Positions 2,971-17,424 of a stretch of DNA of 64,000 nt are shown here, one piece after another. The notes beneath the pieces were generated by a model. That model saw only the letters and a program-made list of their open reading frames with translations. It was not told where the DNA came from and did no database searches. A program made the position numbers and the translations under genes. The stretch is taken from IMG/VR virus record IMGVR_UViG_638276483_000001, positions 1 to 64,000 of that record; one strand, written 5' to 3'. The DNA is from a virus. Its lineage: Duplodnaviria; Caudoviricetes. Each line of letters opens with the position of its first letter. Within the stretch, counting starts at the first letter, position 1.

Positions 2971-3341
2971 TCGCCCGCTTCCGCAGATGGCTCCGTGGCC
3001 CGCTGCCGCCGCTCGAGGATGTTCTCCTCAAGGCGTGCTGGGAGCGGCTCACGAACGACACCATCACGACATATGAGTGGCCGGACCTGCACGGCAGCAT
3101 CCTTGGCGAGGTCCCCACCATATTCCCTGGCGCGGAGTTGTACTTTGCCCCGCGACTCGGCGTTGACTACACCGCCCCCTGGGTGGTTGAGAACCCCTTC
3201 GAAGACACCTCCCGTTGGACGCTCATGGGGGATGTGATGAAGCGGCGCCTCCAGCCCATGTCGGAGTTCCTCAAAGACGTTCTCGAGGATGCCGACCTAA
3301 CCCTCACCTTCAGGCGCTATGGCGAGCAAGAAGACCACTGA
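2967..3341 (+). CDS. hypothetical protein
   Basis: GTGA overlap with upstream gene. Confidence 0.6.
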   Translation: MIARFRRWLRGPLPPLEDVLLKACWERLTNDTITTYEWPDLHGSILGEVPTIFPGAELYFAPRLGVDYTAPWVVENPFEDTSRWTLMGDVMKRRLQPMSEFLKDVLEDADLTLTFRRYGEQEDH

Positions 3342-13336: not shown

Positions 13337-13846
13337 GTGATCAAGACGGTTTTCAGCCGCGAGAGACCGACGGTGATGGATGAAATCGCCGAGGCCGTCA
13401 ACGACGTCGCGCAGGCCTATCCGGAGGTGCGGGGCATCGAAGTCCGCGCCGAAGCGATCGATCCACACGTCTACGGATACGCCAGGGGCGGCAAGCTCAT
13501 CATGTTCAACAAAACCTACACCAGCAACCCGGAGCGATTCCGGAAGCTGGTGGAGAACGACATCACCCTCGGGTTCCACCCGGAGTTAGGGAGATGCTCG
13601 CACGCTGAACTGCTGGCGTACCATGAGGCCGCCCATGTAATCGATCAGAAGCGGCACCTGAAGCCGCGCGTGGCGTTTGCCGAGAAGTATGGCCGCGGCG
13701 AAATCCTCCGAGGAACACTCTCCGGCTATTCCTTCACCACGGATGGGCGCCTAGCCCACGGGGAGGCCTTGGCGGAGGCTTTCGCCGCCACGCTGTGCGG
13801 CAGCGCCAACGATACGGAGCGCGACATCTTCGCGTTCTTCAACTAG
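13337..13846 (+). CDS. putative zinc metallopeptidase
   Basis: HEAAH motif followed by EALAEAF. Confidence 0.6.
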   Translation: MIKTVFSRERPTVMDEIAEAVNDVAQAYPEVRGIEVRAEAIDPHVYGYARGGKLIMFNKTYTSNPERFRKLVENDITLGFHPELGRCSHAELLAYHEAAHVIDQKRHLKPRVAFAEKYGRGEILRGTLSGYSFTTDGRLAHGEALAEAFAATLCGSANDTERDIFAFFN

Positions 13847-13855
13847 GGGAACACT

Positions 13856-14161
13856 ATGGAAGACGATACGGAAGCAATCGTCGAGGTGGCGATGGAAACC
13901 GCCGACGAGAAGGGCGTGCCGATCGTCTTGCTCGGCGGGGCGCCCAACCACCCGATTGCGGACCTACTCCGCATGAGCGGGGCCCAGTTCCTGCACGCCC
14001 AAGACATGAGCTGCACGCCGCGGGCGGTCTACATCATCGCCGAGCCGCGCTACGGCGAGTATCGCTTCGCCACGGGATCGGTCGTGCTCGACCAATTCGC
14101 CAGTATCGCCGATCAGCCCGGGGTAACGGTGCACCGCAAAGAAGTCTTGGTGGACGACTAA
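13856..14161 (+). CDS. hypothetical protein
   Basis: AGGGG RBS, in operon. Confidence 0.65.
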   Translation: MEDDTEAIVEVAMETADEKGVPIVLLGGAPNHPIADLLRMSGAQFLHAQDMSCTPRAVYIIAEPRYGEYRFATGSVVLDQFASIADQPGVTVHRKEVLVDD

Positions 14162-14207
14162 AAAACCACCGAGCCGGCGGGGGATTGGGGCGCATCGGCT
14201 CGGTGGT
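14160..14207 (-). terminator. intrinsic terminator closing the TIGR cassette (possibly bidirectional)
   Basis: accaccgagccg...cggctcggtggt stem preceded on + by an A-run (U-tract on -). Confidence 0.7.
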
Positions 14208-14215
14208 CCGTTTTA

Positions 14216-14267
14216 TCGCAACGGGCGCATCGACCATGGGTGCCGGACATGCACTGGCCCGCTGCGA
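14216..14267 (-). ncRNA. TIGR stem-loop unit U1
   Basis: Minus strand TCGCAGCGGGCCA-GTGCATGTC-CGGCACCCA-TGGTCGATG-CGCCCGTTGCGA. Confidence 0.8.
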
Positions 14268-14378
14268 AGTCTTGAGTTTTAGTGGTCGCCGGACTGAGTG
14301 TGGAAGCGTCCGGCGACCGTAACCTTCGGGCCCAGGCTTGAAATCGGTTTAATCGGGTTAACCCTCCGGCTACGTTTC

Positions 14379-14407
14379 AGTGTAGTGCAGTGTGGCCGCT
14401 TGTGCAA
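14379..14407 (-). promoter_or_regulatory. SigA-like promoter P2 for TIGR unit U1
   Basis: TTGCAC-17 nt-TACACT on minus strand. Confidence 0.65.
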
Positions 14408-14439
14408 CCCACTGCGATAGATTTTTTAGGAGACCTTGC

Positions 14440-14601
14440 ATGAGTAACGTTCGCCAGCGGATGGAGGAGTACCTTGACCAGGGTGGATTCGGCGGAGTTA
14501 AGCCTGAGCACCGGGAGGGCATGTTGGACATCTTGGAGATGTTCGGCAACATCGTCCGCGAGGACTGGGACTCCTGGTCCGAGTATCTCAAGGGGGTTTA
14601 G
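14440..14601 (+). CDS. small hypothetical protein (53 aa) inside TIGR cassette
   Basis: AGGAG RBS; MSNVRQRMEEYLDQGGFGG... Confidence 0.65.
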   Translation: MSNVRQRMEEYLDQGGFGGVKPEHREGMLDILEMFGNIVREDWDSWSEYLKGV

Positions 14602-14774
14602 GTTCACCGGCCGCGGAGCCTTCTTGGGTGTCGCGGGGGATATGGCGACCGGTGAACCGTTCACGACTAGGCGTGTAGCTTTTGGGCGTCGACCGTGCGG
14701 CAGGCCCAGTCGCGAGGTTTAATGCCGCCGGGCGCGTCTGCCTTGGGTGTCGAGCCTCCTCTGGCCCGGCGGCA
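14601..14774 (-). ncRNA. TIGR stem-loop array, units U2-U4
   Basis: Hairpins 14601-14658, 14661-14715, 14723-14774, each with loop repeat CGAC(A/G)CCCA between two ~9-nt spacers. Confidence 0.88.
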
Positions 14775-14780
14775 AGTCTT

Positions 14781-15554
14781 TCATGCGGCCTGCGGAAGCT
14801 CCACGGCCTCGTGGAGCCGCTTCGACTCGCGCCACAAATCTCTCAGGATCTCTTTGCCCATCTTCCGCAGCGCCCGAGCGTGCTTGTGGCCATCGGACAG
14901 GGGGGACCCCGCCAGAGCGGGCTTACCCTTCGGGCCGCACCGTACGCAATCCTTGCCGTGTACCGCGTTGGCGTATTGCTCCTTCGCTGCATAGTAGACG
15001 TCGGCGTAATGCCCTTGGGCCTTGAGGCAGGCCCCGGTAATGTTCCACAGGCGCATCCGCGCCACGTCGTTCCAGTTGCCCTGGACACCTTTCATGTGCC
15101 GCGGCGCGGCGCCGTTGACCACGTGATAACCGCAGTAGGCCCACAGCTCGGAGACGGTGCGCGGCCGATCGTACGGCACCATGACCGGATCGCCGTTTTT
15201 GTCTTTCTCGCCCGTCTCATAGAACCCGCTATGCCAGTACGGGTCGCCCGTCTTGGCGAGTAGCCGGCCAGCTTGCTTGTAGCCGATGCCTTTTTGCGCG
15301 GTGATCCAATCCCCGAGGGGGTGGGCTTTCACGGAGCGCTCAAGATTCTTGATCATCGACTTTTCGCGCTCTTGGAGTTGCTCGACGTGGGCGCGCACCT
15401 GGATAACAGTCGGGTCGTCTTCGCGCAGTCCGTAGCCGTTGTTTTCTGTGTCGGTCAGTGACCGGAGGCGGTTTTCTGCGGCGATGCGGATGTCCTCGAT
15501 GTCGTCGAGGAGTTCGGCAAGAATGCCGATGTTCGTGGTGCTGAAGGGTTTCAT
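14781..15554 (-). CDS. Nop-domain TIGR-associated protein (TasA-like, no RuvC/HNH)
   Basis: Coiled coil RIAAENRL; KGIG...AGRLLA; SELWAYCG; GNWN..AR..LW; HARALRKMGKEILRDLW, the IS110/Nop C-terminal signature; no DEDD domain; flanked by dual-spacer arrays. Confidence 0.85.
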   Translation of the reverse strand: MKPFSTTNIGILAELLDDIEDIRIAAENRLRSLTDTENNGYGLREDDPTVIQVRAHVEQLQEREKSMIKNLERSVKAHPLGDWITAQKGIGYKQAGRLLAKTGDPYWHSGFYETGEKDKNGDPVMVPYDRPRTVSELWAYCGYHVVNGAAPRHMKGVQGNWNDVARMRLWNITGACLKAQGHYADVYYAAKEQYANAVHGKDCVRCGPKGKPALAGSPLSDGHKHARALRKMGKEILRDLWRESKRLHEAVELPQAA

Positions 15555-15575
15555 GGGTTTCTCTTTTCTCTGGGG

Positions 15576-15802
15576 TTCACCCCCCGGCGTTACCCAATAG
15601 GGTTCCGATAGAGAAATGGCCGAGCGGTGAAGTTTGGTTGACGGGGCGGGTGAACATTGGGTGTCGAAGATCAGTTGACCCCGTCAGGTTTGGTTGCCGC
15701 CCGCGGTACAGCTTTGGGTGTCGAGTCTGGCCTGGCCCGGCGGCAAGTTTGATGCGGCGGGCGAGGATGCCCTGGGTGTCGGACGCGCAATAGCCCGCCG
15801 CA
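15576..15802 (-). ncRNA. TIGR stem-loop array, units U5-U8
   Basis: Hairpins 15576-15631, 15639-15686, 15694-15746, 15753-15802 with the same 9+9 nt architecture. Confidence 0.9.
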
Positions 15803-15808
15803 AATCTG

Positions 15809-16309
15809 TTATTCGACCGGGCCGCTCAGTTCGCCGACGGTCTCCACATTCTCAAGCTCCATCTTGGCCAGTACGCGGGCCCAGTAATCAGCATCGGCGT
15901 TCGCAGCTTCAGCGGCCATGCGCCGGGACTCGATCAGGAACTTCACGTCATCGTGATTCAACTCTTTGATGATGACATAGCCACGGTCGGTCCCTATCTG
16001 CTTCTCCAGGAACTTCGCCCACGGGTTTTCTTCCGCATAAGCCTTGGTGCGATTTGATTTGTTTGCCTTCCCGCTGCGCACGGCCCCGCCGCCAGCTCGA
16101 CGCACATCGTTGAGCGCGGCATTTCGCTCATTGCCGATGAAGATGCGGATCTGCGGGGGGAGTGACTTGATGAAGAAGTCGCGAATCAAATGGTCGGGGG
16201 TGGCGTCGGCCACCTTCTCGGCCAATTCCCAGACGTCGGTGACGTCGGGGTTGTCGGCGATCACCTCTCGGATGGCGTCGTTGAGCGTGATTTCAGTTGC
16301 TGCGGTCAT
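15809..16309 (-). CDS. TIGR-cassette accessory protein of unknown function (166 aa)
   Basis: MTAATEITL...; shares a 17-nt leader with the tas gene; lies between arrays. Confidence 0.8.
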   Translation of the reverse strand: MTAATEITLNDAIREVIADNPDVTDVWELAEKVADATPDHLIRDFFIKSLPPQIRIFIGNERNAALNDVRRAGGGAVRSGKANKSNRTKAYAEENPWAKFLEKQIGTDRGYVIIKELNHDDVKFLIESRRMAAEAANADADYWARVLAKMELENVETVGELSGPVE

Positions 16310-16334
16310 GCGTTTCTCTTTTCTCTGGCTGGTT

Positions 16335-16568
16335 TTCACCGGCGGCGCTTGTAGCTTGGGTGTCGGGAACTCTCTGGCCGCCGGTGAAGCTTGGTCGCAG
16401 CGGGCGAGGAAGTTTTGGGTGTCGCCGCAACCTTGGCCCGCTGCGAAGCTTGGTGCCGGGGCGGCCCGAAGATGGGTGTCGCGTCGGATTTGGCCCCGGC
16501 AAATCTGTGGAGTTGTAACGCGGCGGGCGGGACTTCCTTGGGGGTCGAGAACCCGTTGGCCCGCCGCG
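16335..16568 (-). ncRNA. TIGR stem-loop array, units U9-U12
   Basis: Hairpins 16335-16388, 16395-16446, 16454-16501, 16519-16568. Confidence 0.9.
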
Positions 16569-16576
16569 ATGCCCCA

Positions 16577-16605
16577 ACCCTACCGCAGTGCGCTGGGCGG
16601 CGCAA
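16577..16605 (-). promoter_or_regulatory. SigA-like promoter P1 for the TIGR-Tas cassette
   Basis: TTGCGC-17 nt-TAGGGT; predicted start site ~16570 abuts the first unit. Confidence 0.65.
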
Positions 16606-16695
16606 TACACTGCGATGAACTTTTTCTTAAACTACCCGGGACCGAGGTTGACCTGGACTTTTCGACCTCAGCACACAAGCAAGGGGAACTGCTTC

Positions 16696-17424
16696 GTGCG
16701 AATCATCGGCATGTTGAGCTGGTATCAAGAGCCCGTTTCATGGCTCGCCGAGTGCGTGTCGGCGCTCTCCAAGATTTCCGACCACGTCGTCGCGGTTGAT
16801 GGGCCCTACTGGGGCTTCCCCGGCGCCGTGTTGAAGCCCGCCAGCGGCCCCGAACAGGCCGACGTCATCGCCCGCACCGCGGCCGGACTGGGTATGGGCT
16901 GCACCATCCATGCCCCACGCAAGCCCTGGTCGGGCCCAAACGGCGGCGAGGTCGCCAAGCGCGACTGGATGATGCAGGCCGCGATGCTGGTCGCAGAGCC
17001 GGGCGATTGGCTGCTGCGCGTGGACGCCGACGAGGTGTTCACCGCCGTCCCGGGTGACGTAAAGCAGCGCCTAGCCGAAACCGACAAGCACGTCGCCGAA
17101 GTAATGCTCTGGGAGCGCGAGGCCGAGGATTCCGTCAATCGAGTGGTCGATGTCGGCGACGACTACGAATCACCGCTGCGCTGCCTGTTCCGCGCAATCC
17201 CCGGCATCCGCATCGAGGGCGCGCACTTCGTTGTCTCCGCCCCCGTGGAGGGCGAGCGGAGATTCCTCGTCGGTCACAATACGGTGCCCGCAGAGTCCTT
17301 GTGGGATGTCCGCCTGGAGCACCGCACCCGACTTCGTTCACCCGGCCGCAAGCGCCTGAAGAACGAATACAGCCCACTGATCAATCAATTCGAGAAGGTC
17401 GAGGATACGCCTCGCAATGACTAG
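16696..17424 (+). CDS. glycosyltransferase (GT2-like)
   Basis: VVAVDG, DWLLRVDADE; AAGGGG RBS before GTG. Confidence 0.8.
   Translation: MRIIGMLSWYQEPVSWLAECVSALSKISDHVVAVDGPYWGFPGAVLKPASGPEQADVIARTAAGLGMGCTIHAPRKPWSGPNGGEVAKRDWMMQAAMLVAEPGDWLLRVDADEVFTAVPGDVKQRLAETDKHVAEVMLWEREAEDSVNRVVDVGDDYESPLRCLFRAIPGIRIEGAHFVVSAPVEGERRFLVGHNTVPAESLWDVRLEHRTRLRSPGRKRLKNEYSPLINQFEKVEDTPRND

Follow-up and report, generated by a model that had tools for sequence, protein, structure and literature searches.

A conserved 166-aa protein family as a putative companion of one clade of nuclease-less, stem-loop TasA

A gene for a 166-aa protein, located directly upstream of tas in a 64,000-nt stretch of viral DNA (IMG/VR record IMGVR_UViG_638276483_000001, positions 1 to 64,000; hereafter the window), appears to represent a family that is the fixed companion of one clade of nuclease-less, stem-loop TasA. 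This clade resides in phages of actinobacteria and their relatives, and the published PlTasA belongs to it. In its 2025 description, TIGR-Tas consisted of two parts, a guide array and one Tas protein (Faure 2025, PMC12045711), and TasA was said to have no clear protein associations except for an occasional ParB-like gene (Faure 2025, PMC12045711). Our analysis suggests that the 166-aa gene is a likely third part of this guide-RNA system. In the accessible parts of the TIGR-Tas literature, including the three primary TIGR papers, the 166-aa family is not mentioned as a Tas partner and, as far as we could find, this strictly linked third gene has not been described. Taken as a whole, the statement that the family accompanies TasA and functions together with it is probable, with most of its weight on the partnership.

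Three questions have been stated to be open: how stem-loop guides mature, which natural role TasA has and by what route spacers are exchanged (Xu 2026 preprint). A family present at tasA in every examined locus of the clade would be a concrete candidate for all three. Moreover, the clade takes in the structural and biochemical model locus, and the companion gene is amenable to testing in M. smegmatis, which is a tractable host, and in the phages that infect it.

The 166-aa gene and the adjacent tasA

The gene lies on the minus strand (15809..16309), with its ATG at 16309 and its stop at 15809. An alternative GTG start would yield a 176-aa form and would fall inside the last array unit; we prefer the ATG because it is supported both by the family alignment and by a BFVD entry of 166 aa that is 100% identical to our protein, an uncharacterized protein of Mycobacterium phage Omega. 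That this ORF is a real gene, as the original prediction had assumed, is shown by its membership in a large family and by a confident fold, albeit one without a structural match. Residues 7–166 align with phrog_4604 (E 5.4e-61) over profile positions 1–159 of 159, which makes this a full-length match. A word-based search retrieved only the protein itself and one relative with 69% identity; an exhaustive profile search collected 575 clusters at E ≤ 1e-3, of which 98 reach E ≤ 1e-10 and 5 reach E ≤ 1e-30. Among the 575 clusters, the best 150 are 146–216 aa long, and most of these match over nearly their full length.

Structure prediction for the protein alone, one of the checks proposed at the outset, was confident when AlphaFold2 was supplied with 114 sequences (pLDDT 91.1, pTM 0.69); with 4 sequences, the pLDDT was 59.0. 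The model comprises three N-terminal helices (residues 9–73), a low-confidence basic linker (74–95) and a short helix, followed by a β-hairpin (104–113), a long helix (119–153) and a conserved tail. Nearly invariant positions of the family include R62, S87, K89, R94, W97, C117, T118, D121 and R129, although the window protein itself has Leu and Asn at positions 117 and 118 instead of the near-invariant Cys and Thr.

No known fold was matched by this model. The best E value was 1.0 for Foldseek against PDB and 0.4 for a sequence-profile search of PDB, and among 48,161 chains compared by VIA-align the highest Z was 4.3, so that no chain reached Z ≥ 5. BFVD returned uncharacterized relatives only, and a search of the ESM Atlas with the model produced nothing usable. 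The 166-aa query hit no Pfam families at E ≤ 1, and Pfam, NCBIfam and PADLOC applied to 114 members gave single stray matches that do not name the family. We found no catalytic signature in the family, no HTH, recombinase, nuclease, integrase or polymerase signature (Pfam, NCBIfam/PADLOC and fold searches), and no fold or family match suggestive of RNA binding in Pfam, NCBIfam, PADLOC, PDB, Foldseek or VIA-align. We also rejected the possibility that the ORF was once the N-terminal domain of Tas and had been split off: it resembles neither the RuvC nor the HNH domain of TasR and TasH, and no fusion was found. The search for fused forms covered proteins of 334–2000 aa and, by the nature of the method, carries little weight.

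The gene that follows (14781..15554, minus strand) encodes a tasA-like protein of 257 aa in which no nuclease domain was detected. It matches phrog_4285 (E 2.3e-109), whose PHROG label, 'transposase', is an annotation only. The protein has relatives of about 51% identity in cluster A1 mycobacteriophages, and proteins with the A1 motif account for 99 rows classed as Tas in Table S1 of Faure 2025 (PMC12045711). It also shares 31% identity (E 1e-32) with the PlTasA-like protein of locus L054, which is discussed below. Being kin to published Tas and having no Pfam nuclease domain, or indeed any Pfam domain, at E ≤ 1, the neighbor is a nuclease-less Tas, in agreement with the original prediction.

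Linkage of the 166-aa family to TasA

We scanned IMG/VR with a three-sequence Tas alignment and detected the partner with a profile of the 166-aa family that had been built blind to genomic context. In each of the 34 loci chosen by Tas similarity (31–51% identity to the window Tas over the best segment), a family member is encoded directly 5′ of tas on the same strand. The gaps between the two genes range from 13 to 973 bp and are mostly 250–350 bp. About 12 of these loci come from near-identical A1 phages, and 20 are non-redundant (more than 10% apart in Tas). The same gene order is found in four of five further phage lineages, represented by BPBiebs31, Gordonia phage BENtherdunthat (gp058), Rhodococcus phage Peregrin (gp186) and Mycobacterium phage Rich (gp51). 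In a Microcystis phage, whose Tas is 26.5% identical, no family member lies within 3 kb of tas, and the link is therefore clade-specific.

Linkage was also assessed starting from the family, in bacterial genomes and in phage tallies. Two sets of 401 bacterial genomes each, drawn at the order and class level and having one genome (G001) in common (about 800 in total), contained three strong family matches, all three with tas directly 3′. One weak partial match (E 1e-8) has no tas within 1.5 kb. Among 50,697 phage records, Tas is present in 89 (Mycobacterium 81, Gordonia 5, Rhodococcus 1, Arthrobacter 1, Microcystis 1), and P0013, an unbiased representative of the family, in 86 (81, 4 and 1); compared as totals, the two tallies are nearly equal. 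Single distant family members used as IMG/VR queries found no loci, a metagenome scan for the context of the family gave three loci that match neither profile, and a single Tas protein as query found no Tas relatives among genome contigs.

The two proteins also diverge in step. Pairwise distances of the partner correlate with those of Tas (r 0.635 for 210 pairs from 21 non-redundant loci), a value that none of 2000 permutations reached, and the partner diverges faster (mean distance 0.75 vs 0.49). The surroundings of the pair differ among cluster A1, Gordonia and Rhodococcus phages and prophages, and often there is no array 5′ of the pair. Thus, in the genomic sense, the counts for IMG/VR, the further lineages and the strong bacterial matches, together with this correlation, uphold the prediction that the gene is a partner of tas. 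Its co-occurrence with TasA loci, another of the proposed checks, is strict within the examined clade.

The clade extends to the published model locus PlTIGR (Faure 2025 Fig. 7B), which was recovered from the gut metagenome of Peromyscus. Locus L054 is a near-copy of PlTIGR: the HTH ORF differs by one residue, the TasA N-terminus and the array starts are the same, and the units of L054 (4 + 5 + 4 = 13) equal the published number. PlTIGR has been described as 'three subarrays separated by a ~450-nt intergenic region' (Faure 2025, PMC12045711). At positions 3273–3746 of L054, between the second and third sub-arrays, there is a 157-aa ORF whose stop overlaps the tasA start and which falls into the 166-aa family (HMM E 7e-15; hhalign 98.2%, with the motif FGDCTRDDL). 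In this near-copy, the 'intergenic' stretch is a gene of the family. The published PlTIGR sequence is 2,635 characters long and, at this size, would be expected to include the ORF as well; we infer that it does. PlTIGR resembles the window locus in its Tas clade (31% identity), in its units (stem, spacer, CGAYACCCA core, spacer, stem) and in having arrays on both sides of a ~470-nt stretch just 5′ of tasA. In contrast to the window, L054 has four units within the tasA reading frame and no shared leader.

A simple scan placed 4–5 units inside the 5′ part of the tas frame in each of L034, L042, L047 and L054. Stem-loop units inside the tas frame have already been reported for BlTasA, and in-frame units of this kind are probably part of the Tas proteins annotated as 'long' in Gordonia phages.

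TasParB is likewise linked to tasA; it was named from HHpred matches to ParB and has dual-repeat arrays around it (Faure 2025, PMC12045711). Like the 166-aa gene, it shares an operon with tasA and flanking arrays, and its product has a C-terminal helix that could dimerize. However, the arrays around the 166-aa family are of the stem-loop type. None of 114 family members matched ParB models in Pfam at E ≤ 0.01, and no ParB chain is present among the Foldseek PDB matches (best E 1.0) or the best 50 VIA-align rows (best Z 4.3). For these reasons, we treat the family as apparently distinct from TasParB as it has been described. By analogy only, the arrangement recalls box C/D RNPs, in which Nop5 is joined by L7Ae and fibrillarin: in both cases, a Nop-domain protein on a C/D-type guide RNA is accompanied by small separate partners. 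Pfam, Foldseek and VIA-align revealed no likeness of the family to either L7Ae or fibrillarin.

Arrays, leader and the inserted cassette

The locus as a whole is a stem-loop TIGR-TasA system, that is, one of an already known kind. Read along the minus strand from 16,612 to 14,415, it consists of a promoter-like sequence, four units, a leader, the 166-aa ORF, three plus one units, a second leader, the 257-aa ORF and three further units. Array 1 (16335..16568) has four canonical stem-loop units with CTT-containing linkers. Array 2 (15576..15802) has three canonical units (15802–15639) and a degenerate terminal unit (15631–15576) that retains the stem but not the CGACACCCA core, and array 3 (14601..14774), 3′ of tas, has three units; all are on the minus strand. 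The original prediction of four units before each gene is therefore accurate for array 1, while for array 2 it holds only if the degenerate unit is counted. In total, the cassette contains ten canonical units and one degenerate unit, and a single orphan unit lies outside it.

The units are arranged in tandem, each with its own stem and two spacers around the core: stem, 11-nt spacer A, CGACACCCA-type core, 10-nt spacer B and closing stem. The stems have 8–14 contiguous pairs (9–12 in array 1, with a different sequence in each unit), and their sequence varies between units while complementarity is kept. Directly before the stems are the linkers AAGCTT, AAACTT, AGACTT and AGATT, which agree with the CUU motif reported at the stem base as the processing boundary (Xu 2026 preprint). 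Since the spacers of array 1 are unlike those of array 2, a recent duplication of an entire array does not account for the pair. The last unit of each array (14601–14658, 15576–15631 and 16335–16388) has the same kind of stem, TTCACCGG...CCGGTGAA, and the loss of the core in the last unit before tas resembles a degenerate terminal repeat.

An identical 17-nt leader precedes both genes, as originally noted. Copy 1, CCAGAGAAAAGAGAAAC, is at 16312..16328 on the minus strand (read 16328–16312) and is followed by GC-ATG (ATG 16309–16307); copy 2 is at 15557..15573 on the same strand (read 15573–15557) and is followed by CC-ATG (ATG 15554–15552). Each copy thus ends 2 nt before its ATG, and each comes after an array. 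A repeat search extended the likeness through the start codon as family D10 (23 nt, 22/23 identical, 15551–15573 and 16306–16328). According to our own arithmetic, an exact 17-mer is expected to recur by chance about 2e-4 times within 2.6 kb, and the expectation is still lower for an A/G-rich word in G+C-rich DNA. Both leaders directly follow a terminal array unit whose 3′ arm ends in GGTGAA, so that the repeated block is made up of the 3′ arm of the terminal unit, the leader and the start codon. A duplicated block of four units, leader and gene, as first proposed, is thus correct for these elements but not for the arrays, whose spacers differ.

The leader is purine-rich, and its AGAAAAGAG ends 6 nt before the ATG and matches 8 of 9 positions of the complement of the mycobacterial 16S rRNA 3′ end. 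Most simply, the leader would be a duplicated ribosome-binding (Shine-Dalgarno-like) region. None of the 20 other non-redundant loci shares a leader word of at least 12 nt before both genes, the longest word shared elsewhere being the 11-nt unit core in L054. In the A1 phages, the partner gene overlaps the preceding gene and has no array on its 5′ side. The repeated block is therefore a local, lineage-specific duplication, and the shared leader does not belong to the general working of the system. Accordingly, the idea that the leader matches the translation of the two genes is plausible for this locus, given the Shine-Dalgarno-like sequence, but does not generalize to the other 20.

The arrays and both genes lie within a cassette of 2,198 bp (14415..16612) that is missing from related Cluster J phages. 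Alignment with phage Courthouse places CACTG copies at its boundaries (14410–14414 and 16608–16612), and 14 related Cluster J phage records match the flanks only. The same cassette has been described from Mycobacterium phage Omega as an "IS110-like transposon", an insertion of 2.2 kb with identical boundaries and an identical 5-bp CACTG duplication (Pope 2013, PMC3706429). The authors of that study already pointed out that, unlike the Omega insertion, IS110 elements reportedly create no target duplications (Pope 2013, PMC3706429). A discrete insertion relative to an empty site is what would be expected of the IS110 family. By contrast, no DEDD/RuvC-like transposase with a Tnp domain was found: the supposed transposase is TasA, which has no Pfam match at E ≤ 1, be it to a transposase or to a DEDD domain, and the rest of the element is made up of guide arrays and the 166-aa partner gene. 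The 166-aa gene is not discussed in the accessible account of the insertion (Pope 2013, PMC3706429). A long-standing mycobacteriophage 'transposon' annotation can thus be re-read as a TIGR-TasA cassette.

At the right end of the cassette, 5′ of array 1, a promoter-like sequence (TTGCGC, 17 nt, TAGGGT; 16577..16605, minus strand) was recognized by eye, and it is similar to the backbone sequence at 14379–14407. Because a consensus promoter scan of 13800–17000 called no sites, we only infer a promoter role for 16605–16577, from that reading by eye. The ends of the cassette (14379–14427 and 16577–16625) resemble the flanks of the insertion site over about 45 nt, including the −35/−10-like hexamers, and this likeness extends past the 5-bp duplication reported in 2013. 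Such a likeness could reflect a recombination event that inserted the cassette or, alternatively, its loss from the other phages through deletion between repeats. The cassette also includes a 69-aa ORF of uncertain status on the plus strand (14392..14601), with a good ribosome-binding site and antisense to read-through from array 3; it matches nothing in Pfam and nothing clearly in PHROG, and the 34 related loci (L022–L055) contain no homologue.

Possible roles of the 166-aa protein

That the 166-aa protein is a functional partner of TasA seems to us highly likely from its genomic associations. The combination of a helical N-terminal domain, a basic linker with near-invariant Ser, Lys, Arg and Trp, a β-hairpin and a long C-terminal helix suggests a small nucleic-acid-binding adaptor, possibly dimeric. 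Our preferred guess, a tentative one, is that its role is on the RNA side, in line with the array-processing factor that was among the roles originally suggested.

Two considerations favor such a role. First, PlTasA binds guide and DNA without a protein of the 166-aa family, which speaks against a part in binding guides or recognizing DNA and leads us to favor an accessory role in vivo. Purified PlTasA and synthetic tigRNA alone gave binary and ternary cryo-EM complexes and shifted target DNA, and PlTasA-VPR, supplied with a U6-driven guide, was active in human cells (Appleby 2026 preprint). Second, guides are interleaved with coding genes and occur even inside tas, which favors a role on the precursor RNA. 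In the window, array 1, leader, gene, array 2, leader, tas and array 3 would probably be co-transcribed as one precursor, starting at the promoter-like sequence at 16605–16577. Excision of guides from it at CUU sites would leave both messages with near-identical short 5′ ends, the duplicated leader giving both genes the same translation start region. The 166-aa protein would then handle the guide-containing precursor, acting in the maturation or loading of stem-loop tigRNAs or, in an alternative form of the proposal, balancing guide excision against translation; for DNA recognition itself it would be dispensable.

Which agent processes stem-loop arrays at CUU has been left open among 'Tas, host ribonucleases, or auxiliary factors' (Xu 2026 preprint). 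In the same study, flanking sequence improved stem-loop processing, and for CPR TasR, whose stem-loop arrays were processed in E. coli, the authors favor a host RNase (Xu 2026 preprint). The CPR TasR result counts against our reading, as do the missing catalytic signature, the Leu and Asn in place of the near-invariant Cys and Thr, the searches that gave no match suggestive of RNA binding and the restriction of the shared leader to this lineage. A more specific and more doubtful form of our preferred reading is that the family constitutes a system-encoded 'auxiliary factor' of stem-loop TIGR in actinobacterial phages, which would recognize the units of the precursor and direct their maturation or loading. 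If true, this would account for the presence of guides before, between and inside coding genes, and it would mean that the factor was present unnoticed in the PlTIGR construct first used for stem-loop guide processing.

The evidence for linkage (34/34 loci, 4/5 lineages and 3/3 bacterial matches) would apply equally to a downstream effector or co-repressor, either recruited by DNA-bound TasA-tigRNA or binding DNA beside TasA. Its action could result in a firmer block of transcription or replication, in exclusion of competing phages or in help with recombination at the bent target. The conserved basic residues and the long, possibly dimerizing helix of this small helical protein would suit such a role, and TasA has no enzymatic domain, its natural role being left open by the authors (Faure 2025, PMC12045711; Xu 2026). 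However, a TasA from a different lineage, combined with T7-driven guides, was enough to repress a reporter (Xu 2026 preprint), and so TasA alone suffices for repression in reporter assays. Together with the binding of tigRNA and DNA by PlTasA alone, this speaks against the protein being the effector or silencing subunit that Tas lacks, as originally worded. Furthermore, Pfam, Foldseek and VIA-align identified no DNA-binding or enzymatic fold. The search for self-targets in this phage genome (paired 9-mers, at most 2 mismatches each, gaps 0–4) gave 57 paired hits for the 11 units, no better than chance given a mean of 6.1 hits per mismatched spacer pair in 110 controls; thus, no site of action can be named. 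Overall, we regard an effector as rather unlikely.

Less likely still is a role in the housekeeping of the cassette, either as an operon regulator or as a factor that moves or maintains the 2.2-kb element, with no direct work alongside TasA. This explanation draws on the discrete and precise insertion with a 5-bp duplication and no recognizable transposase, absent from 14 related phage records and called a transposon in 2013 (Pope 2013, PMC3706429), on cassette ends that mimic the target flanks, and on the position of the gene, always first of the pair like many regulators. But elsewhere the pair is found in quite different surroundings, often without an upstream array, and the comparison with an empty site concerns only Omega. 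The protein has no HTH or recombinase signature, and the PlTIGR-like locus L054 already has a separate HTH gene upstream. Strict linkage could also stem from joint carriage in one mobile cassette, and we assign the remaining probability to there being no functional tie between the protein and TasA.

A part for the protein in spacer turnover, helping to replace spacer pairs in stem-loop units, is very improbable. In its favor, no adaptation machinery is known for TIGR (Faure 2025, PMC12045711; Xu 2026), and spacers clearly turn over, since an orphan unit shows three spacer pairs among nine near-identical backbones. Against it, eight of these nine phages have neither the 166-aa gene nor tas at the site, so that turnover there needs no resident copy, and the family has no nuclease, integrase or polymerase signature. 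The originally suggested role in spacer acquisition is thus unsupported.

An orphan stem-loop unit in the Cluster J backbone

The orphan unit is part of a transcription unit of the backbone (14160..14407, minus strand) outside the cassette. It comprises a promoter-like sequence recognized by eye (TTGCAC/TACACT, 14407–14379), a hairpin (14318–14284) 5′ of the orphan unit, the orphan stem-loop tigRNA unit itself (14267–14216) and a terminator (about 14209–14160). Nine Cluster J phages have the orphan unit (the window, L013 and L059–L065), eight of them without tas at the site. Its flanks, stems and core are nearly invariant among them, and the spacers occur in three unrelated versions. Constancy of flanks, stems and core with varying spacers is the pattern of a live guide and not of a decayed relic; the orphan unit may thus be a guide without a resident Tas. 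The stretch is annotated as a 45-aa gene (gp20) on the opposite strand.

Upstream in the backbone, the gene at 13337–13846 matches a PHROG 'zinc-finger protease' (phrog_7153, E 1.8e-92), and the C-terminal half of its product was reported to resemble the zinc-binding part of the catalytic domain of lethal factor (Pope 2013, PMC3706429).
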